In this document: positions 3,960-33,305 of the stretch, one piece after another
Layout: every line of letters starts with the position of its first letter
How positions within the stretch are numbered: the first letter of the stretch is position 1
DNA from: Candidatus Woesearchaeota archaeon
Lineage (GTDB): Archaea; Nanobdellota; Nanobdellia; UBA10117; ARS21
Assembly (NCBI GenBank): GCA_018698915.1
Contig: JABIPN010000017.1
Location: 1-44,491, forward strand
Reading direction: 5' to 3'
Length of the DNA: 44,491 nt
Made by a program: the position numbers and the translations under genes
The notes under the pieces: generated by a model
The model's database searches: none
Told to the model about the DNA's origin: nothing
Seen by the model: only the letters and a program-made list of their open reading frames with translations

Positions 3960-4720
3960 TGAAAAAGGCACAAGTATTACGAGTCAGTGGAGGAAAAACC
4001 TCAGATATAGAACTACCTATTCAATTTGTAGAACCACTTAGAATCGATCTTATTCAAAGAGCAGTTAGAGCATTACAATTTAATAGAAGACAACCATACG
4101 GACATGATTTAATGGCCGGAAAAAGACAAGGATATGCAACTTCTAAATTAAGAAATAGTTACAGAACAACATATGGAAAAGGAATTTCAAGAGTTCGTAG
4201 AAAACACTTACGAAGTCAAGGAAAACAATTTACTTGGGTTGGTGCATTTGTTGCTAGTGCAATTGGTGGAATGAAGGTATTCGCACCGAGAGCAGAAAAG
4301 AATCTAATAGTTAAAATTAACAACAAGGAACGAAGAAAAGCAATTCGTTCTGCAATCGCAGCGTCAAAATATACAATAATTGATGCAAAGATTGAAGTAT
4401 TAAAGAAAACTGCTGAAGTCAAAAAATCAATGGAATCAAACAATCTTGGAAAAGAATTGGAAAGAGCAAAAATTAAGAAGGTTCGAGCAGGAAAAGGAAC
4501 ACGAAGAGGAAGAAAATATAAAACAAAAGTAGGCCCTCTATTAGTATTTAGTAAAGTTTGTCCAGCATTAATTGCAGCTGAAAACATTCAAGGAATTGAT
4601 GCCGTTATTGTAAATAATCTTAATGCAGAATTACTTGCACCAGGAGGACAACCAGGAAGATCAACTGTTTGGAGTTCTGATGCAATCAAAAGACTAAAGG
4701 AGGAGAATTTATTCAACTAA
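3959..4720 (+). CDS. rpl4: 50S ribosomal protein L4
   Basis: KINNKERRKAIRSAIAA, LNAELLAPGG; operon position. Confidence 0.97.
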   Translation: MKKAQVLRVSGGKTSDIELPIQFVEPLRIDLIQRAVRALQFNRRQPYGHDLMAGKRQGYATSKLRNSYRTTYGKGISRVRRKHLRSQGKQFTWVGAFVASAIGGMKVFAPRAEKNLIVKINNKERRKAIRSAIAASKYTIIDAKIEVLKKTAEVKKSMESNNLGKELERAKIKKVRAGKGTRRGRKYKTKVGPLLVFSKVCPALIAAENIQGIDAVIVNNLNAELLAPGGQPGRSTVWSSDAIKRLKEENLFN

Positions 4721-4721
4721 A

Positions 4722-4991
4722 ATGAAAGGAAATAAAGTATTTGACATTTTGAAGTATCCTTTAGCAACAGAAAAAGCAGTTCGAGCAATCGAGGCAGAAA
4801 ACACATTAATATTCGCAGTTCACAGAGAATCAACAAAGAAACAAATTAAGTGGGCTATTGAAACAGAGTACAAAGTAAAAGTAACTTCTGTTCGAACACT
4901 AAATGACATGAATGGAATAAAGAAAGCCTATGTAAGATTGGATCAATCAAACTTAGCAGTTGATGTAACTTCCAAGCTAGGATTAATATAA
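4722..4991 (+). CDS. rpl23: 50S ribosomal protein L23
   Basis: PLATEKA, ENTLIF, KKAYVRL. Confidence 0.97.
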   Translation: MKGNKVFDILKYPLATEKAVRAIEAENTLIFAVHRESTKKQIKWAIETEYKVKVTSVRTLNDMNGIKKAYVRLDQSNLAVDVTSKLGLI

Positions 4992-4992
4992 A

Positions 4993-5709
4993 ATGGGTAA
5001 ACGATTAAGACAACAAAGACGAGGAAAAGGGTCTATTCATAAGACACCTAGTCACCGTTCTCTTGGGAAATTAAGTTATCCTTCATATCAAGGCGAAGCC
5101 CTATACGGAAGAATTCTAGATATAACTACTTCTCGAATGCATAATGGTCCATTAATGGTTGTTGAATATGACAACGGAGACTTATCACTAACTCCAGCTC
5201 CATTTGGAGTCAGAGTAGGGCAAAATATCTCAATGGGAGATACAAACCCAGGAAACGGGAATATAATGAAGATCAAAGATATGCCAACAGGAACATTAGT
5301 CTTCAATTTAGAAAGAGTGCCGGGAGATGGTGGAAAATACGTAAGAACTTCAGGAACTGCAGCTCAAGTTTTAGGAAGAGAAGGAAAAGGGATTGCAATA
5401 AAATTACCTTCAAAGAAAAAATTGATACTTAACGAAAACTGCTTTGCAACAATTGGGACAATTGCAGGAGCAGGAAGAACTAACAAACCTTTTGTCCGAG
5501 CTGGAAACAAATTCTATGCCATGAAAGCAAGAGGACTAAAGTATCCAAAAGTTAGAGGTCGAGCAATGAATGCTGTAGATCACCCACACGGTGGAACTAG
5601 ACCTAAACAAATGGGTATGGGTAAATATTCCACAACAGTTCCTAGAAACTTACCGCCAGGTAAGAAGGTAGGACATATCGCAGCCAGAAGAACAGGAAAG
5701 AAGAAATAA
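4993..5709 (+). CDS. rpl2: 50S ribosomal protein L2
   Basis: MGKRLRQQRRG, PKVRGRAMNAVDHPHGG, PPGKKVGHIAARRTG. Confidence 0.98.
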   Translation: MGKRLRQQRRGKGSIHKTPSHRSLGKLSYPSYQGEALYGRILDITTSRMHNGPLMVVEYDNGDLSLTPAPFGVRVGQNISMGDTNPGNGNIMKIKDMPTGTLVFNLERVPGDGGKYVRTSGTAAQVLGREGKGIAIKLPSKKKLILNENCFATIGTIAGAGRTNKPFVRAGNKFYAMKARGLKYPKVRGRAMNAVDHPHGGTRPKQMGMGKYSTTVPRNLPPGKKVGHIAARRTGKKK

Positions 5710-5710
5710 A

Positions 5711-6094
5711 ATGGTAGAAAAAGTGTTTAAGTTTAAAGGGAAGACAATGGAAGAACTTCTAGAATTAGATAGAAATCAATTTGCTGAATTATTAAGCTCA
5801 AGAAAAAGAAGAACAATAAAGAGAGGAATCTCAGAAAATCAAGAAAAGTTTATGGAAAAATTAGCAAAGGGAAAACCAAAGTTAAGAACTCACCGAAGAG
5901 ATATTATAATCACTCCAGCAATGGTTGGGAAAACTGTTGAAGTTTACAACGGAAAAAAGTTTATTACAATTATAATAAACGAAGAAATGCTCGGTTATTA
6001 CTTAGGATCACTTGTACAAACAAGAAAAATTGCATCACACAAAGGAACTGGAGTCGGAGCTACAAAGAGTTCAAAGCACCAAGGTAAGAAATAA
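5711..6094 (+). CDS. rps19: 30S ribosomal protein S19
   Basis: RTHRRDIIITPAMVG, VYNGKKF, GVGATKSS. Confidence 0.97.
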   Translation: MVEKVFKFKGKTMEELLELDRNQFAELLSSRKRRTIKRGISENQEKFMEKLAKGKPKLRTHRRDIIITPAMVGKTVEVYNGKKFITIIINEEMLGYYLGSLVQTRKIASHKGTGVGATKSSKHQGKK

Positions 6095-6726
6095 TGGTAA
6101 AAGGAATTAGTATGCAAGCATATGATGGAAAGACAATGGCTAAAGTAATTGGAAAGAACTTGCCAGTATCAAAGAAAGTCGCATACGAAGTAACAAATCA
6201 CATTCGAGGAAGAACAATCGAAAAAGCAATAGCAATATTGGAAGATGTTCAAGCAATGAAGATGCCCGTACCTTACAAGAGATATAATAAAGACACACCT
6301 CATCGAAAAGGAGATTTTGCAGCTGGAAGATTCCCTGAAAAAGCAGCAAGATACATAATTCCACTATTAAAATCACTAAAGTCAAACGCAGATGATAAAG
6401 GATTAACTGGCGAACTAATATTAGTTCATTCAGCAGCAAACATGACTGCAAAGAGACACAGATATGGAAGAGTAAGAGGAGTAAAGAGAACAACACACGT
6501 TGAGTTTGTTGCAGCTCCAACAACTAAACCAGCTAAAAAGGTTGAATCAAAGAAAGAAATCAAACCAGCTAAAAAGGTTGAATCAAAGAAAGAAATTAAA
6601 CCAGCTAAAAAGGTTGAATCAAAGAAAGAAATTAAACCAGTAAAGAAAGTTGAAGAAAAACCAAAGGCTGAAACAAAACCAAAAGAATCAAAATCTGAAA
6701 CAAAACCAAAGGAGAATAAAAAATGA
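6094..6726 (+). CDS. rpl22: 50S ribosomal protein L22 with repetitive Lys/Glu/Pro C-terminal tail
   Basis: VPYKRYNK..HRKG..GRFPEKAA core; tail of KPAKKVESKKEI repeats. Confidence 0.96.
   Translation: MVKGISMQAYDGKTMAKVIGKNLPVSKKVAYEVTNHIRGRTIEKAIAILEDVQAMKMPVPYKRYNKDTPHRKGDFAAGRFPEKAARYIIPLLKSLKSNADDKGLTGELILVHSAANMTAKRHRYGRVRGVKRTTHVEFVAAPTTKPAKKVESKKEIKPAKKVESKKEIKPAKKVESKKEIKPVKKVEEKPKAETKPKESKSETKPKENKK
6526..6654 (+). repeat. 36-bp in-frame tandem repeat, about 3.5 copies
   Basis: aaaccagctaaaaaggttgaatcaaagaaagaaat(c/t) at 6526, 6562 and 6598; partial copy at 6634. Confidence 0.95.
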
Positions 6727-25593: not shown

Positions 25594-27099
25594 TTTCTTA
25601 CCCATATACCAACCATCTCGTGAATAGCCATGAACATTTTTGTAATATTCCCGAACACCGACGCCAGATATAACTAACATTTTCTTTCTTCCAGCTTCAC
25701 GAGCAATCTCTTCAGCTTTCTTCATAAGTTTTGTTCCCCAACCTTTGTGCTGAGTGTCTTCACCTTCATCCCCAATTCCAGTCACACTTCCATAAACGTG
25801 CAACTCTCGAAGCATTGCTTCAGGTCTTTCACCAAGACGCAATCTACAGAATCCCAATATAATATCTTCCTCTTTATCTTCAGCAGAAATGAAATATTCA
25901 TCTCCACCACTTGATCGATATTTCTCAACAAACAATTCAATATTTCTAGCAACCTTTCCAGTTCGCTTGTAAACTTGACCGGCTTCTCTAAATCGAATTT
26001 CCTTAACTGGATAATTCTCCTCAATCAAATTTGCCTCAACATATTCTCGCAAGTTACCTTTCTTAGGTCCAGCACCAATGTACTGCGCAGGAATATCTCG
26101 TTGAACTCTCATCAGTCGAGTCCACTTTGGAGCTCTTCGATAAGCTTCTTCGATAACTTTAATATAATACTCTTCATCCTTTGGTTCATATTCTCCAGCT
26201 TTCCATTGATCATACAATTCAGTATCTGGCATAACTAAAGTCGGATAAATCTTAAACATGTCTGGACGGAAATCTTCGTTCTCAAAAATCTCAGTCATCA
26301 TTTTGACGTCCATTTCAAAGGTTGTTTTTGGAAGTCCCGGCATAATATGATAAAGAATTTTGTAACCAGCTTCTTTCAAAACTTTAACAGCATCCTTGAA
26401 TTGCTGAACGGTGTGTCCACGATTAACTGCTTCAAGAACTTCATCAGATATTGACTGCAAGCCCATTTCAATCCGAGTGCAACCAAGTTCCAAGAACTGT
26501 TCAGGGAAAATCCAATCTGGACGAGTTTCAACAGTCAAACCAATACATCGATTTTCTGCAGTTTCATTCTTCTCTTGAGCTTCAGCGAGAGTTTCAGAAA
26601 TCTCACCGTTCAAACCATCAAAAGATCTCTTAACAAAATCTTTCTGATAATCCCACTCATAAGATGGAAAAGTTCCACCCTGAATAATAATTTCATTTTT
26701 GTCAGTCAAGTGACCTGTTCGTTTCAAAGCCGAAACTCTTTCAGTAACCGTTTTGTAAGCGTCATAATTATTTCGGATTGAACGCATTGTTGAAGGTTCA
26801 AAACCAGTATAACTCTTCGGAGCATTTTTACCTTCAGGACAGAAAGTGCATCTTGCCGGACAACCATTTGGTTTAGGCATAATTGCAATAATAGAAACTC
26901 CGGCCATACTTCTAGTCGGTTTAGTATTCAAAACCATGCGAAGTTTTTCTTTCTGCTCAGAATTACAAGCTTTCCAAATATGAACATTCAAAGGAAATGT
27001 TTCAAGCGTGCCATCACGAACATATTTCCGTTTAATAGATTCAACTTTGTTCTTAGTAAGTTTCTCAGTTTCAACTAATTCCTGAATCAATGTTTGCAT
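25588..27099 (-). CDS. elp3: Elp3 tRNA U34 carboxymethyltransferase (radical SAM plus KAT domain)
   Basis: KPTRSMAGV, CPARCTFCP, QGGTF, ETRPD, RELHVYG, QHKGWG, VISGVGVREYY; start moved to ATG 27099. Confidence 0.95.
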   Translation of the reverse strand: MQTLIQELVETEKLTKNKVESIKRKYVRDGTLETFPLNVHIWKACNSEQKEKLRMVLNTKPTRSMAGVSIIAIMPKPNGCPARCTFCPEGKNAPKSYTGFEPSTMRSIRNNYDAYKTVTERVSALKRTGHLTDKNEIIIQGGTFPSYEWDYQKDFVKRSFDGLNGEISETLAEAQEKNETAENRCIGLTVETRPDWIFPEQFLELGCTRIEMGLQSISDEVLEAVNRGHTVQQFKDAVKVLKEAGYKILYHIMPGLPKTTFEMDVKMMTEIFENEDFRPDMFKIYPTLVMPDTELYDQWKAGEYEPKDEEYYIKVIEEAYRRAPKWTRLMRVQRDIPAQYIGAGPKKGNLREYVEANLIEENYPVKEIRFREAGQVYKRTGKVARNIELFVEKYRSSGGDEYFISAEDKEEDIILGFCRLRLGERPEAMLRELHVYGSVTGIGDEGEDTQHKGWGTKLMKKAEEIAREAGRKKMLVISGVGVREYYKNVHGYSRDGWYMGKKL

Positions 27100-27175: not shown

Positions 27176-28063
27176 ATGTTCTTCAAAAGTAAGAAGCCCT
27201 TTAAAGATACTTGGTGGAAAAAGGCAATAAGAATATTTGGTTATATTGTTGCAACATTAACAGTAATTCTTTTAGTTACTGGCGCCCCAGAAGATACAAG
27301 AGATGAAGTTAGAGTAATTCCAATAACTGGCGCAATTTTTTCAGGATCAGATAGTTTTTCTTCAGACACATTCTCAGATGAAGTTATAGCTCAACTAGAA
27401 TATGCACAAAATAATAAACAAATTAAAGCAGTTATCTTAGAAATTGATAGCCCAGGAGGAACTGTTGTAGGTTCAAGAGAAATATCAAACGCAATTGAAG
27501 ACTTTGATAAACCAATAGTAACGTGGATGAGAGAAAGTGCAGCCTCTGGAGCATATTGGATTGCAGTATCAACAGAGCATATAGTTGCAGATCCCGCAAC
27601 ATCAACTGGTTCAATTGGAGTAACGGGATCTTATTTACAATTTTCAGGATTACTAGATGATTATAATGTAACTTATGAACGGTTAGTTTCAGGAGAGTAC
27701 AAAGATACTGGATCACCATTTAAAGAGTTAAGTCAACAAGAACGAGATTTAATCCAACGAAAAATCAATCTCATAAATAATATGTTTATTGAACACATAG
27801 CAACATCAAGAGGATTAAGTAAGTCATATATTCGCGGATTAGCAACAGGCGAAATATTTCTCGGAGTTGAAGCATTAGATAAAAAATTAATTGATTCATT
27901 GGGTGGAAAAAAGGAAGCAGTTGGTATTGCAGTAGAATTAGCAAATTTAGACGACTATCAAATTACAAAATATGAAAAGTCGACGTCAGTATTCGATAAA
28001 TTATTTTTCGGAAAAAATGATAATGAATTATTTTCTAAAACTTCATTCGGACTCAGAGCTTAA
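27176..28063 (+). CDS. sppA: Signal peptide peptidase SppA (S49, short type)
   Basis: N-terminal TM, IDSPGG, AASGAYWIA, TGSIGV, SGEYKD. Confidence 0.93.
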   Translation: MFFKSKKPFKDTWWKKAIRIFGYIVATLTVILLVTGAPEDTRDEVRVIPITGAIFSGSDSFSSDTFSDEVIAQLEYAQNNKQIKAVILEIDSPGGTVVGSREISNAIEDFDKPIVTWMRESAASGAYWIAVSTEHIVADPATSTGSIGVTGSYLQFSGLLDDYNVTYERLVSGEYKDTGSPFKELSQQERDLIQRKINLINNMFIEHIATSRGLSKSYIRGLATGEIFLGVEALDKKLIDSLGGKKEAVGIAVELANLDDYQITKYEKSTSVFDKLFFGKNDNELFSKTSFGLRA

Positions 28064-28855
28064 ATCAGAATTCCAAACTTTTTCAAACATTTTACTCATT
28101 GTACCTGAAAAATAGTTTGAATTAATCCAAAAACCCATATCATAAGATGGATGTACTTCCTCATCATCAGTTAACATGAATATAATTTGTTTATTATCAA
28201 CTAAACAAAATCTTCCTTTAAAGTCACCACTATTTTTGAATTTAACATTTTCACCAAAACTAGCTATAATTTTCTGACTTTCTGGATTTTCAGGGGCTAA
28301 AATCCTAATTTTAATGCCTCGGGCAACTGTACGCTCGATTAAAGGCTTCAGAGTATTAAGTTTTCTCAGTAATCCTTCTTCAGAAGTAACCAAATCAACG
28401 CGCTCTTCAGCATTTTTTAACACATAACTTATTTGATCATAAAGGTTATGTCTTCCCTTTAGAGCACCAGAAAAATCAGTTATTTGTAAAGGTTCTATAC
28501 CTTGATTGTACAAATTAGCCAATTCACTCATTAATTCCGAATCTTTAAGTTTAATTACTTTTTCTGAATGTTTAATCAAATTCATACGAATTTTACTATG
28601 AACTCTGTCTAAAACCTCATTTGGAGGAATTGCCATGTATTTAATCGGTTTTTCAGGCTTCACAATAACAAAACCCTTTCTTTCAAGGCTCTCAAGAACA
28701 TCATATGTACGTGAACGAGGAACATCTGAAATATCACTTAATTCTCCGGCAGTAGAAATCCCTCTTGATAATATTGCAGCCCATAGTTTAACTTCATAAA
28801 GATTCAAACTGAAAGAACTTCTCAACTTAACCAAGAAAGACTCATTAATTATCAT
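28043..28855 (-). CDS. TrmB-family transcriptional regulator
   Basis: LNLYEVK..TAGELSDISDVPRSRTYDVLESLERKGF plus C-terminal PLD-like effector domain. Confidence 0.9.
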   Translation of the reverse strand: MIINESFLVKLRSSFSLNLYEVKLWAAILSRGISTAGELSDISDVPRSRTYDVLESLERKGFVIVKPEKPIKYMAIPPNEVLDRVHSKIRMNLIKHSEKVIKLKDSELMSELANLYNQGIEPLQITDFSGALKGRHNLYDQISYVLKNAEERVDLVTSEEGLLRKLNTLKPLIERTVARGIKIRILAPENPESQKIIASFGENVKFKNSGDFKGRFCLVDNKQIIFMLTDDEEVHPSYDMGFWINSNYFSGTMSKMFEKVWNSDLSSESE

Positions 28856-28905
28856 TATTGAGTAATACTATTTTTCCTTTTTAACAATTTCTGCGATTAA
28901 AACTA

Positions 28906-29427
28906 TTATATCTGCTCTAATTTCCTAGAATCAAAGAATCCGGCCTTTTTCATCTCTGAAAACTGCGTATTTGAAAATAAAACAGGGTTAATCTCAGTAT
29001 CTAACTCGCCATTAACAAAGCCAGTTATATCATATAGATTATCTCGGTCCATTAGTGTACTTACAATAACAATCTTATTCTGATCTTTACGATCAACAAA
29101 AATTCTAGGTTCGGAGCCATGTAATAATCCAATTCGATCCTTTATGATTTCTAAGGGAGTTTTGGATTTATCTAGAAACATATTTGCAAACAGTTTAAAT
29201 GATTCAGAAGTTCTGTCAACTTCATAGAATTTAATTCGGTCGCTTTCATCTTTCTTAATCATTTGAGTAGTAACCAATTTCTGTATTATTCGGTGCGCTG
29301 TTGCAAGACTAACTCCGGATTCTCTAGATAAGTCTCTAAGATAAAATCTACCCTTCTTTCCCAGAAGAGCATAAACTACAGCAACAGTTTTAGCATCAAA
29401 TACCTTACTGAGAAGCTTTTTCTTCAT
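28906..29427 (-). CDS. wHTH regulator fused to a degenerate minimal nucleotidyltransferase-like domain
   Basis: HTH 'YLRDLSRESGVSLATAHRIIQKL'; C-terminal 'LLHGS..ELDTEINPVLFS'; start moved to ATG 29427. Confidence 0.7.
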   Translation of the reverse strand: MKKKLLSKVFDAKTVAVVYALLGKKGRFYLRDLSRESGVSLATAHRIIQKLVTTQMIKKDESDRIKFYEVDRTSESFKLFANMFLDKSKTPLEIIKDRIGLLHGSEPRIFVDRKDQNKIVIVSTLMDRDNLYDITGFVNGELDTEINPVLFSNTQFSEMKKAGFFDSRKLEQI

Positions 29428-29543
29428 GTTCAATAATTGAAACGCAGATATAAAAGTGTTTCCTACTAGGAACACCATTTCAAATACTGAACATACTTTT
29501 GAAACAATGTTCCAAAAAGTAAAAAGTGTTCCAAAAAGTTATT
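29428..29543. repeat. Array of 16-bp GTTC-N7-GAAAC-like boxes (putative operators)
   Basis: Boxes at 29428, 29458, 29477; half-sites at 29490, 29509, 29528; 19-bp spacing; tgttccaaaaagt repeated exactly twice. Confidence 0.7.
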
Positions 29544-31224
29544 TACGTCCTCTTTGCGCAGAAGAGAGCTTCAAAATACGTTTTAAGTTATCAACATCTT
29601 TCAAATCTTTATCATCTCTTAGTCTTACAAATCTAGGAAAGCGTAAAGCATAACCTGAACCATAAGTTGGAGACCTCTGAATCTCTTCATATTTAACTTC
29701 AATAATTACACCCGGTTTAATCTTAACACTTCTACCAGATTCACCAATAATAAAAGGTTTCAACAATTTAGTCATTTTGTCAAAACTCACACCCATTTCA
29801 TCCTTTTCTTTAAATCCAGTTCCAATTTTTCCAATTTCTTTAAAACCGTCTTCAGTTCTACAAGCAAGAATAAAACTACTAATCCAGTTTGCACGTTTTC
29901 CAGTTCCCCACTCACCACCAACAATAACTAAATCAAGAGTTTCCATTACAGGTTTAATTTTAACACCAAACCCCACTCTCGAGCCAGGTTTGTAAACACC
30001 TTCGAGATTTTTCATCATAACACCTTCTGCCCCAACTCGTAAAGCTTCTTCATAGAATTCCTGACTCTGCTCAATAGAGGAAGTTGTAATTTCTTTAGCA
30101 AGACTTACAGAAAAAGAATCTTCAGTTATGATTTCTGAAAGTTTTTCACGCCTATCTTTAAACGGAATATCAATAAAATTTTTACCAGACAAACCAATTA
30201 AATCAAATGCAAATATCATAACTGGAACTTCTTTAATCATATCATCAATTCCATATTTTCGTTTAATCCGCTGAGATATCTCTTGAAACGGTTTCCAAGA
30301 TTTAGTGTCTTTATCATAGCCAACAACTTCACAATCAATAATATAATTTTTTGATTTTACATCCTTCTTTACTATTTCAATAATATCAGGAAATTGAGTA
30401 GTAACATCTTCAAGATTACGCGTAAACAATTTGAATTCATTATCTGATCGATGGATTTGCAATCTGAATCCATCATATTTGTAATCAATAATGGCAGGAG
30501 ATCCAACAACTTCAAAGCCTTCTTCAACAGATTCAACTTTCTTGAAAAGCATAACTTTAATTGGAGTACCAACATTTAATGAAATCTTTTCTAGTCCCGC
30601 ATCACCCCTTGTTTTTGCAACAAGTGCTACTCGAGACAAATCAGTAGTTAAATCATATGCTTTCTGAACATTTTTTACATCAACATCAAATGCATCAGCT
30701 ACTGCATCACGCAAGATTCCAAATCCCGAGCCAGTTCTCAAATCTTCGAGACAAGTTCGAACAAGATATTTAGAGTCAACACTATTTGAAGCTCCAAGGA
30801 GTTCAGATATTAATCCAACCTTTTTTCCAGTACTCCCAGTTCCATGAATTTCTGAAAGTTTTCTAAGATTATCAAATACTTGTTTAATAGTTAATTTTCT
30901 CTGAGTTAAAGAATCCTGAGTTCGAGAAGAAATATTTTTTTCAGCAACAAGCCCCAAATCACCGATTTTTGCCCACTGATCATTCAAATCAGTATCAGTT
31001 TTTCCCGATACTTTTGAGATTGATTTCAATATTAATTGATTTCCGATACCTATCTTTCTCTTATCAGATTCAGGAAAAAGTCTACCTTCCAATAACAAAA
31101 TTGATGCTTCAACTTCATCTGGTTTAATACCTCTCAAAAAGTCAGTAATAATTGCTCGTTTTTCAAGCATCTTTGTTGTCTGAGATAATGACTGATAAAT
31201 ATCAACAAGTTTGGAATATTCCAT
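29539..31224 (-). CDS. lig: ATP-dependent DNA ligase
   Basis: Motif I KYDGFR, EGVMMK, TLDLVIVG, ALRFPRF. Confidence 0.97.
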   Translation of the reverse strand: MEYSKLVDIYQSLSQTTKMLEKRAIITDFLRGIKPDEVEASILLLEGRLFPESDKRKIGIGNQLILKSISKVSGKTDTDLNDQWAKIGDLGLVAEKNISSRTQDSLTQRKLTIKQVFDNLRKLSEIHGTGSTGKKVGLISELLGASNSVDSKYLVRTCLEDLRTGSGFGILRDAVADAFDVDVKNVQKAYDLTTDLSRVALVAKTRGDAGLEKISLNVGTPIKVMLFKKVESVEEGFEVVGSPAIIDYKYDGFRLQIHRSDNEFKLFTRNLEDVTTQFPDIIEIVKKDVKSKNYIIDCEVVGYDKDTKSWKPFQEISQRIKRKYGIDDMIKEVPVMIFAFDLIGLSGKNFIDIPFKDRREKLSEIITEDSFSVSLAKEITTSSIEQSQEFYEEALRVGAEGVMMKNLEGVYKPGSRVGFGVKIKPVMETLDLVIVGGEWGTGKRANWISSFILACRTEDGFKEIGKIGTGFKEKDEMGVSFDKMTKLLKPFIIGESGRSVKIKPGVIIEVKYEEIQRSPTYGSGYALRFPRFVRLRDDKDLKDVDNLKRILKLSSAQRGRK

Positions 31225-31300
31225 GCCTACTACTTAATCAAAGACCAATAAAAGACTTATTATTCGCAAAACTTTATAATGTTCCAATATATAAGAAAAC

Positions 31301-31963
31301 ATGGATGTTCTTGAAGCAATTTTTGGACGGAGGTCAATTAGAAAGTTCAAAAAGGACACAATTCCCTATCGAGTTCTATTTGATATTTTTGAAGCAGCAG
31401 TAAGTGCTCCACGAGCTGGAAATATTCCAAGCACATGGATGGTTTTAATTGAATCAGACAATATTAAAGAGAAATTAAAAAACGCATGTATAGATCAAGA
31501 TTGGATAGCAGAAGCACCAGTAATTGTGGCAGTATGTTCAGATATAAAAAGATTAAAACAAGTATATGGTGAGCAAAGTGAATTATATTCAATTCAAAAT
31601 TCTTCAGCAGTAATCCAGAATATGCTTATTGCCGCAAGAGAATATGATTTGCAAGGCACGTGGATTGGCGCATTTTCAGAGTCAGACGTAAGAAAAGTAT
31701 TAAGCATTCCAAAAAAAATAAATGTACATGCACTAATTGCATTAGGAAAAGCTGATGAGACTCCAAAGAAAATTCCAACAGTTCAGGCAACAGACTTAGT
31801 TTACTATGAAAAATGGAAAGCAAGCAACAAAGCATCCAAATTAATACCGCTAAGTAATAATCCAAAAATTCAAAAGACAATACAGCAAGCAAGAAAGCGT
31901 TCACAAAAAACAAGAGACAAATTTATCAAGCGGTTCGGGAAGACCATAAAGCATTTTAAGTAA
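31301..31963 (+). CDS. Nitroreductase-family flavoprotein
   Basis: RRSIRKF, APRAGN, QNMLIAA..WIGAF. Confidence 0.9.
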   Translation: MDVLEAIFGRRSIRKFKKDTIPYRVLFDIFEAAVSAPRAGNIPSTWMVLIESDNIKEKLKNACIDQDWIAEAPVIVAVCSDIKRLKQVYGEQSELYSIQNSSAVIQNMLIAAREYDLQGTWIGAFSESDVRKVLSIPKKINVHALIALGKADETPKKIPTVQATDLVYYEKWKASNKASKLIPLSNNPKIQKTIQQARKRSQKTRDKFIKRFGKTIKHFK

Positions 31964-32076
31964 TTAATTGTATAGTGAAAACTATATTTTGAAACATACA
32001 ATTCAAAAAATCGAACTTAGTACACTGTTTTCAAAACTAAAAAAGGGCCGACCTGTATACTCCACCATATAAACCC

Positions 32077-32105
32077 TTTTTAAACAATTGTTCCATTGTT
32101 GAAAC
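32077..32105 (+). promoter_or_regulatory. ftsZ promoter: TATA box followed by a GTTCCATTGTTGAAAC box
   Basis: tttttaaa 32077-32084; box 32090-32105. Confidence 0.6.
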
Positions 32106-32152
32106 AAGTCAAAGACATTTTATTGTCAATTGACCTCGGAGAAAAAAAGAAA

Positions 32153-33229
32153 ATGGATTTCCTTGTACAAAACGCACTGGACTCAGCCAACGAGTTGGCA
32201 AGTTCACAAACAGATGACATGAATATCGGACAAGCAAATATAAAAGTACTAGGCTGCGGTGGAGCAGGAAACAATATGGCTGATTGGTTATATCGAAAAG
32301 GCATCAAAGGTGCTGAAATTATTTCTGTAAACACTGACAAGCTACATCTTGATCACAGAGAAGCTGATAAGAAAATACTTATTGGTAGAGATACAACTCG
32401 TGGACTAGGGGCAGGAGGTAATCCTGACGTTGGTGCACAGTCGGCTCGAGAGCAGATTCATGAATTAAAATCAGCAGTTCAAGGCTCAGACATGGTTTTT
32501 GTTTGCGCCGGATTAGGTGGAGGAACTGGAAGCGGAGTAGCTCCAGTTGCAGCACAAGTTGCAAAAGAAAATGGCGCAATTGTCATTGGTGTTGTCACAA
32601 TGCCTTTCAATATTGAAAAAGCAAGAATTGACAAAGCTGAATTCGCACTTAAACAATTGAGAGAAGTTTCTAATACAGTAATTGTAATTGATAACAATAG
32701 ATTATCTTCTATCGCAGGAAATTTACCTATTCGTCAAGCTTTCGCTGTAGCAAATGAATTAATTTCAACAATGATTAAGAGTATTGTAGAGATTATTTCA
32801 GTACCATCCTTGATTAATTTGGACTACGCAGACGTAAGAGCAATAATGTCCGCAGGCGGAGTTTCAGTTACTGGAATTGGTGAAGCAGACGGTGACAAAA
32901 GAGTAGATGAAGCAACCAAGCGAGCACTTTCAAACCCATTATTAGAAGTATCATATAATGGAGCTTCTGGAGCACTAATTCACATTACTGGTGGACCAGA
33001 TATGACTCTTGATGAAGCCGAAAGAATTGGTGAACTTATAACTGGCGGTCTTGACGCAGATGCAAATATTATCTGGGGAGCAAGAATCGACGATGAGATG
33101 AGAGGAAAGATTCGAGTTATGACAATCATAACTGGAGTAAAATCTCCATTCGTTCTTGGAAAAGCAAGCGCAGTACCATCTCCGCAAGCAATAGAAATGA
33201 ACCACGAGCTTGGTTTGGAGACAATATAA
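32153..33229 (+). CDS. ftsZ: Cell division protein FtsZ (FtsZ2-like)
   Basis: [24 protein letters not shown] and SLINLDYAD (FtsZ2-like); ATG 32153 preceded by GGAG. Confidence 0.96.
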
Positions 33230-33273
33230 TAGTTAAGGCGCACCTCCGAGGTTGTCTTACGACGTCTTAGCCC

Positions 33274-33305
33274 GGTACCCTTCGGGGTACCATTTACCTT
33301 TTTTT
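33274..33305 (+). terminator. cUUCGg hairpin plus U-tract after ftsZ
   Basis: GGTACCC-TTCG-GGGTACC then atttacc and T7. Confidence 0.7.

Follow-up and report, generated by a model that had tools for sequence, protein, structure and literature searches.

A conserved palindromic box shared by the promoters of an FtsZ2-type gene and a linked winged-helix regulator gene in a DPANN archaeon

What controls the level of the division protein FtsZ2 in an archaeon that has no CdrS-type gene beside ftsZ2? In Halobacteria, ftsZ2 is reportedly controlled by CdrS (and CdrL), in work by Darnell et al. (2020, PMC7439475) and in work attributed to Liao et al. in 2021. Here we describe a stretch of 44,491 nucleotides (nt), called the window, which is contig C8 of a Candidatus Woesearchaeota genome (G000; 523,628 bases in 35 contigs, 33% G+C, estimated 88% complete). 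The relatives of the window proteins carry the labels Woesearchaeota, Nanoarchaeota, Pacearchaeota or Nanoarchaeia metagenome-assembled genomes, which places the host among the DPANN archaea. In the window, the promoter of an FtsZ2-type gene and that of a gene for a 173-aa winged helix-turn-helix (wHTH) protein, 2.7 kb away, have in common a 16-bp imperfect palindrome, tGTTYC-N6-GRAACa. An earlier note, made from the sequence alone, had drawn attention to this box and read it as the mark of a CdrS-independent cell-division regulon. The finding is real and stronger than that note could know, and its interpretation is supported in part.

The features at the division gene are as follows.
32153-33229, plus strand: FtsZ paralogue, FtsZ2-type by exclusion (Pfam Tubulin and FtsZ_C)
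32077-32084, plus strand: TATA box tttttaaa of the ftsZ2-type gene, an AT-rich box kept in the aligned promoters of the order
32090-32105: operator-like box GTTCCATTGTTGAAAC, 5 nt (caatt) past the ftsZ2 TATA box

The box spans +5 to +20 after the ftsZ2 TATA box and, since the TATA box of archaeal promoters is usually centred near -26, would fill the interval between TATA box and start site. Its conservation was followed in the upstream DNA of the 30 best loci from 39 genomes of the order. A box directly follows the ftsZ2 TATA box in 30/30, as GTT-N10-AAC in 27, with N11 in two and with a single mismatch in one. The intervening gap is 2-5 nt as judged by eye, an automatic measure being unreliable where the spacer is itself AT-rich. 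Across the 28 loci scoring at least 13 bits the box keeps its place after the TATA box, whereas its spacing to the ATG runs from 25 to 188 nt. It is thus the core promoter, rather than the coding sequence, that fixes the position of the element. Almost no variation is seen in the GTT...AAC ends (positions 1-3 and 14-16) or in the A/T pair at 6/11. Positions 4/13 and 5/12 vary independently on each side (complementary in 9/18 and 3/18 unique boxes), as would be expected of a dyad bound by protein rather than of a conserved hairpin.

The wHTH gene has an array of such elements in front of it, read mostly on the minus strand.
28906-29427, minus strand: gene of the 173-aa wHTH regulator; its orthologues keep the ATG at 29427 as start
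29455-29448, minus strand: wHTH TATA box TTTTATAT, 20 nt ahead of the ATG
29443-29428, minus-strand reading: box W1 GTTTCAATTATTGAAC, 4 nt past the TATA box and abutting the ATG (29427)
29473-29458, minus-strand reading: box W2 GTTCCTAGTAGGAAAC, 2 nt 5' of the TATA box, over the position of the transcription factor B recognition element (BRE); 13.2 bits
29492-29478, minus strand: degenerate box GTTCAGTATTTGAAA
29501-29513: everted half-site pair GAAAC-aat-GTTCC
29528-29532: half-site GTTCC

The positions that the earlier note had given for the ftsZ2 box and its TATA box are exact, as are the gaps of 5 nt there and 4 nt at the wHTH gene; the second full box, W2, had been missed. The TATA box ends 20 nt before the ATG, so the wHTH mRNA is probably leaderless, given the usual promoter geometry. 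The wHTH upstream region holds six half-sites in 111 nt (29428-29538), a higher enrichment than in any other of the 278 intergenic regions (Poisson p 1.3e-5). Boxes also occur at the wHTH promoter in 11/12 loci of other orders, where two tandem boxes of the type GTTCCAAAAATGAAAC lie 19 bp apart, the second abutting the TATA box; an equivalent of W2 is found class-wide. In one family of the order (f7; L015, L017, L018, L019, L021, L026) the wHTH upstream regions have GC-rich leaders of 90-140 nt between TATA box and ATG. These leaders contain a hairpin with compensatory changes in 5/9 predicted pairs among the six sequences, and they match no Rfam family.

In the window, GTTYC-N6-GRAAC has three matches against 0.15 expected, a count reached in 0/100 shuffles; one match, at 26721, falls within the Elp3 gene. 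The related pattern GTTC-N7-GAAAC, for which the earlier note had proposed a genome-wide scan with expected hits at other division genes, has nine matches in the 523-kb genome. All three non-coding matches lie in the ftsZ2 and wHTH promoters, and the other six fall in coding sequence by a crude map of open reading frames (ORFs). Of the expected division-gene sites, those at ftsZ1 and sepF did not appear: within 250 nt upstream the best matrix scores are -1.0 for ftsZ1 and 5.3 for sepF, which therefore have no box, and the idea of a wider cell-division regulon finds no support there.

Most real sites depart from the strict pattern, so matrices were used in its place. A forward matrix, symmetrised from 21 unique 20-mers of ftsZ2 promoters, ranks the ftsZ2 box (a training member) first in the genome and W1, which was not in training, second with 18.5 bits; the third match (15.1 bits) is in coding sequence. 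Applied to the wHTH upstream regions of the order, it gives 35 matches of at least 9 bits in 24/30 regions, against a mean of 0.39 and a maximum of 2 in 200 rounds of mononucleotide shuffling. A reverse matrix was built from 19 wHTH-promoter sites in 11/12 loci of other orders, found with the forward matrix at 5 bits or more. In G000 it ranks a site on contig C23 first (22.5 bits), the ftsZ2 box next (19.5) and W1 after it (15.8); everything below is coding and scores at most 15.3. The claim that one and the same box stands at both promoters is thus borne out by the reciprocal ranks together with the order-wide conservation. Because a strong box is found at only three promoters of the genome, it is not a general promoter feature. 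In a genome of another family (G012, 919 kb in one contig), the best intergenic match lies 38 nt 5' of ftsZ and the next 85 nt 5' of the wHTH gene; matches also occur upstream of purD-like and methionyl-tRNA synthetase genes. A match at C1:14947, considered as a further target, was discarded as the T-arm of a tRNA.

The gene order around ftsZ2 is Elp3-like radical-SAM protein, S49 peptidase, TrmB-like protein, wHTH protein, ligase, nitroreductase, FtsZ, gatD, gatE and elongation factor 2 (EF-2), in which the remaining genes of interest are:
28043-28855, minus strand: TrmBL2-like (TrmB-like) gene, 270 aa, 50 nt downstream of the wHTH gene
29539-31224, minus strand: ATP-dependent DNA ligase
31301-31963, plus strand: nitroreductase

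The wHTH gene is single-copy in the genome and is present in 36/39 genomes of the order. It lies within 7 kb of ftsZ2 on the same contig in 23 of these 36 and at 10-16 kb in three more; in the remainder ftsZ2 was not found, or a fragmented assembly leaves the two genes on separate contigs. With a profile of 25 orthologues the protein is detected in 137/301 sampled genomes of the phylum, with a distribution patchy by family. Linkage outside the order was read from coordinate tables for the 95 genomes with full-length wHTH matches (short N-terminal matches and G175, G167 and G331 were left out). The wHTH gene has an FtsZ2-type gene within 4 kb in 15/15 and 76/80 genomes, that is 91/95. It stands directly 5' of ftsZ2 on the same strand in 8 + 39 = 47/95, divergently in 6 + 36, on the same strand with a 1-kb gap in one and convergently in one; in the four unlinked genomes the genes are on other contigs or no FtsZ2-type match exists. 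The linkage is seen in about 40 families and has persisted through rearrangement in three forms (tandem, divergent and convergent), which argues that it is under selection.

In its N-terminal part the 173-aa protein matches HTH_IclR (PF09339) with 25.8 bits (cut-off 22) over residues 13-60, and falls below the cut-off for the TrmB domain (PF01978; 22.9 vs 25.6 bits), a domain that is precomputed on some relatives. No Pfam match was obtained for the sugar-binding TrmB effector domain (PF11495) or for the IclR C-terminal effector domain. In an AlphaFold model (predicted local distance difference test 82), residues 1-73 form a winged helix, 75-103 two helices and 108-172 an alpha/beta domain. The best Foldseek matches are weak, namely TrmBL2 (5bpd, E 2e-4) and IclR and MarR chains, the IclR chains aligning to the model over about 100-120 columns only. 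A structure search independent of Foldseek matches residues 1-87 to many wHTH proteins, including MarR-family chains with Z 8-9, and an alignment-based sequence search of solved structures gives only weak MarR and Lrp/AsnC matches (E 0.004-0.01). In the 25-row alignment the predicted recognition helix has T43, R46 and I47 in every row and Q49 and K50 in at least 90% of them; such a near-invariant recognition helix fits the class-wide constancy of the putative operator.

Residues 88-173, searched as part of the whole model, have a single structural match, to the putative nucleotidyltransferase 1ylq_B (Z 8.9, root-mean-square deviation 2.2 over 78 residues). The catalytic motif of minimal nucleotidyltransferases (MNT) is G-S ... 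D-x-D. The 'HGS...VDRKD' stretch of the protein is not conserved in the 25-row alignment, where F156 is the only invariant C-terminal residue, and the C-terminal domain is therefore probably non-catalytic. The label "MNT-like" that the earlier note had given this protein thus has some support from the fold, but not from the catalytic motif. Homodimer prediction gave a score of 0.06 (mark 0.42), which is evidence neither way.

The FtsZ of the window matches TIGR00065 with 378.6 bits (cut-off 295.2). The M. jannaschii FtsZ1 ('FtsZ homolog 1') scores 426 bits against the copy on contig C29 and 319 bits against the window copy, and since the C29 copy scores higher, the window copy is assigned to the FtsZ2 type, by exclusion only. 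A close orthologue of the window FtsZ, or a fragment of one, is present in all 39 genomes of the order, most of which have a second paralogue at about 45% identity. The C29 gene (L001 1243-3117) encodes an FtsZ1-type protein with a long acidic, serine-rich N-terminal tail, and is followed by MazG-like and SecE-like ORFs, an arrangement reminiscent of the ftsZ-secE order of other archaea. DPANN genomes generally have both FtsZ families, according to the Liao et al. preprint. Contigs from RNA libraries (four runs of two studies) cover, within 29300-33300, only 32141-33248, at about 100% identity. They are compatible with expression of ftsZ in situ and are little proof of it: such libraries can contain DNA, the contigs show no ends, and uncovered stretches carry no information.

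The earlier note had seen no CdrS-like ORF at this locus, and a wider search agrees. Upstream of the ftsZ ATG (32153), the 189-nt gap that follows the nitroreductase stop (31963) contains no plus-strand ORF of at least 40 aa. The search for cdrS that had been proposed, made with the ribbon-helix-helix (RHH) family RHH_1 (PF01402), gave 0 matches at E values up to 1 in this genome (88% complete). No RHH gene adjoins ftsZ2 in the 39 genomes of the order; nine have an above-cut-off match, none of them within 70 kb on the ftsZ2 side of a contig. One genome has an RHH_1 ORF about 2.2 kb 5' of an FtsZ1-type fragment (G037:C29:9081-11935), the one case in the order of an RHH gene close to an ftsZ. 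CdrS, and its co-occurrence with ftsZ2, are described by Darnell et al. (2020, PMC7439475) for every major archaeal clade except DPANN.

We consider it probable, with some reserve, that the box is the operator of the autoregulated 173-aa wHTH protein, which would act on the ftsZ2 core promoter, likely as a repressor. In archaeal repressors such as TrmB, Phr, MDR1 and LrpA, sites lie over the BRE and TATA box or between the TATA box and the start site, and the boxes at ftsZ2 and at the wHTH gene occupy promoter-occluding positions of this kind. A dimer of the protein would bind the two half-sites, which are one helical turn apart. At its own promoter, boxes on both sides of the TATA box would cover the BRE side and the start site and lead to autorepression; at ftsZ2, the bound box would block recruitment of the polymerase or opening of the promoter. 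The C-terminal domain, its catalytic motif lost, may dimerise the protein or sense a small molecule. Repression is suggested by the position of the boxes, and a link to a signal by the domain make-up.

The third strong box (C23:4679-4698), the top match of the reverse matrix, lies 75 nt 5' of the ATG of a gene for a 103-aa MarR-like winged-helix protein (G000:C23:4296-4604). The divergent gene (region 4296-6676, L123) encodes a long secreted protein with a weak surface-layer (S-layer) domain match (E 0.017, below the cut-off). The box is about 25-30 nt from one TATA box and about 15 nt from the other, so that regulation by the wHTH protein could here be of either sign. The leader of the S-layer-like gene contains a perfect 9-3-9 everted repeat, ACATAGAAC-ATA-GTTCTATGT (core ATAGAAC-ATA-GTTCTAT), which is kept in families f1 and f4.

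Several observations weigh against the 173-aa protein as the factor acting at ftsZ2. Outside the order the ftsZ2 box reaches 10 bits in only 1/15 regulator-bearing genomes (G233) and occurs in 1/13 genomes without the regulator, so that there is no difference between the two groups (these counts drop L113, whose start is not placeable, and L122, which has FtsZ1 only). Three genomes of the order (G023, G031 and G036; 69-87% complete) have no detected wHTH gene and yet keep the ftsZ2 box. The promoter of the small MarR-like gene also carries a box, and that protein and the ftsZ2 box have matching ranges. Because the forward matrix seeded the reverse one, the two matrix tests depend in part on each other, and one of the 21 forward training sites (L046) is actually the palindrome upstream of the TATA box described below. 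In G012 the sites are weaker, and coding-sequence matches are interleaved with them at equally high scores. The strict GTTYC-N6-GRAAC pattern, counted across the 39 genomes, does not exceed its reversed-pattern control.

Since most ftsZ2 promoters outside the order have no box, support for direct control of the ftsZ2 core promoter is confined to this order, and elsewhere linkage alone is the evidence for control of ftsZ2. Co-conservation of motif and regulator, which the earlier note had proposed as a check, fails beyond the order, where 14/15 regulator-bearing genomes have no ftsZ2 box, a distribution that goes part of the way towards the refutation named there. The ftsZ2 promoters of other Nanoarchaeia orders (L093-L121) share different elements, with or without a wHTH gene: cTTGTTGGCGCaag (at times in repeated form, TTTTGGCGAAAA), TTCTAAGGA, and a TATA box followed by TTTTCGGTAGTT.

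These shared elements, present regardless of the regulator, also bear on a more general explanation, in which some other factor reads the box, or the box is a lineage-specific core-promoter element without a dedicated regulator, and the linkage is gene order inherited in small genomes. DPANN genomes do retain much synteny, and other orders keep the wHTH-ftsZ2 linkage without an ftsZ2 box; however, a general promoter element would not be expected at only three strong sites in a genome, nor inherited order in three arrangements across some 40 families, and we regard this explanation as unlikely, if the most serious of the alternatives. A specific candidate for another factor is the 103-aa MarR-like protein, which would bind the ftsZ2 box and regulate itself through the C23 box. 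That box is the top-scoring one in the genome and is kept in 11/16 evaluable loci of the order (families f1 and f4), absent in five, and not judgeable in 14 owing to an N-terminal extension of the orthologue. The protein is found in 34/39 genomes of the order and 0/30 of other orders, the same range as the ftsZ2 box, but the latter count comes from one short query sequence of limited sensitivity. Its gene is unlinked to ftsZ2, its promoter has one box as opposed to the arrays at the 173-aa gene, and the C23 box may serve the divergent S-layer-like gene. Moreover, the same box type flanks the wHTH TATA box in the 11/12 loci from orders where the small protein was not found, and a class-wide factor must therefore read it. 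On balance the small protein is a real rival, if a rather poor candidate.

The TrmBL2-like neighbour, the alternative binder in the earlier note, is poorer still. TrmB-family proteins bind palindromes near TATA boxes. The gene begins 50 nt past the wHTH gene and is downstream of it in most genomes of the order; here it is possibly co-transcribed, so that the array could control an operon with the binder in second place. However, where it stands apart from the wHTH gene it has a conserved promoter of its own, cGTAACATATATTAAGTAGTAa, without a GTTYC/GRAAC box, and it was not detected at 15 ftsZ2/wHTH loci of other orders whose wHTH promoters have boxes. Its match to the family of the chromatin-like TrmBL2 is far below the cut-off (75 vs 530 bits), and that to PF11495 is weak (19.4 vs 22.2). 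The cGTAACATATATTAAGTAGTAa element occurs in many genomes of the order (L003-L032); in the genus of G000 its equivalent is aaaaaTAGTATTACTCA, just before the ATG of the TrmBL2-like gene (28856-28905). Least probable by far is a chance resemblance of two AT-rich palindromes. The genome has 33% G+C, and coding sequence contains the strict pattern about as often as its control, but accident would hardly keep a box in 30/30 promoters at a fixed offset from the TATA box or produce the reciprocal matrix ranks.

A second palindrome-like element, GTATACTCCACCATAT, lies upstream of the ftsZ2 TATA box (32055-32070) and occurs once in the genome. Its form in relatives is tGTATACT-N2-AGTATACa, 4-8 nt 5' of the ftsZ2 TATA box in most genomes of the order (L033-L062), and an AGTATA motif of similar kind adjoins the ftsZ2 TATA box in other orders. 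Degenerate copies of the shared box had been proposed at 31981 and 32001. The letters are present, but 31981-32016 contains no matrix match above 9 bits, and the first copy is kept only within the family, beside the nitroreductase stop. The element gtgaaaactatattttgaaacatac (31975-31999), right after that stop, is likewise kept within the family (L033-L040) but does not qualify as a box under the matrix; it could be a terminator or a signal of another kind. The weaker half-site proposed after the nitroreductase TATA box, GTTCCAATAT (31281-31290), scores below the matrix threshold and is found in 0/4 congeners, which have TCTCTCAATAT or TCTTCCAGTAT in its place; it is a chance half-site.

If the 173-aa wHTH protein is the binder, the system would resemble CdrS in being a small dedicated DNA-binding protein encoded beside ftsZ2, often directly 5' of it, with a linkage that is taxonomically wide, and in being a candidate link between growth state and FtsZ2 level. 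CdrS differs in that it is a ribbon-helix-helix protein co-transcribed with ftsZ2 and is reported to be of activator type, whereas here the protein is a winged-helix one unrelated to CdrS and has an additional C-terminal domain, the two genes have separate promoters, and the operator position suggests repression. Like TrmB, TrmBL1 and TrmBL2, the protein begins with a winged helix that leads into a long helix, and its putative operator is palindromic; TrmBL2 is the top Foldseek match, and sites of that family located after the TATA box repress. It differs from them in falling below the TrmB cut-off, in lacking the sugar-binding domain and in having another C-terminal domain and another operator sequence. 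The likeness to IclR and MarR proteins lies in the HTH_IclR match above the cut-off, in the MarR chains at Z 8-9 and in palindromes overlapping its own promoter, as in autoregulation; the IclR effector domain and the MarR dimerisation helices at both ends are absent, and the C-terminal part appears nucleotidyltransferase-like. The aCcr1 protein of Sulfolobales (PMC9976878) is reported to be likewise a small transcription factor acting on a cell-division gene through a promoter motif, but has the RHH fold and belongs to another lineage with the ESCRT/Cdv division machinery. We found no description of a winged-helix regulator linked to ftsZ2 in DPANN in a literature search that left most subscription journals outside its reach.

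A broader picture can be drawn, tentatively and with more doubt than the operator assignment itself. In DPANN Nanoarchaeia, which lack CdrS, a class-wide FtsZ2 module might pair the wHTH domain with a nucleotidyltransferase-like sensor that has lost catalysis, in one protein whose gene stands next to ftsZ2 in almost all genomes that possess it and which would recognise a conserved GTTYC-N6-GRAAC operator. Within this order the protein would directly gate the ftsZ2 core promoter and the S-layer/MarR divergon, and so couple constriction of the division ring and growth of the envelope to a signal of nucleotide type, taking the place of CdrS without being its orthologue. The mechanism would be of an ordinary kind, applied to a question that is open for DPANN. 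Only in haloarchaea (CdrS/CdrL) is it known how the level of FtsZ2, the FtsZ specific to constriction, is controlled, and for the gap that DPANN represent a candidate is offered here: a named protein with a putative 16-bp operator, three promoters as targets and a linkage in 91/95 sampled genomes. The organisms are uncultured, and a recombinant protein-DNA pair is one of the few routes to their cell-cycle control. The locus may also illustrate the rewiring of a regulon, in which the putative operator is class-wide at the regulator's own gene and has a place at ftsZ2 in one order.

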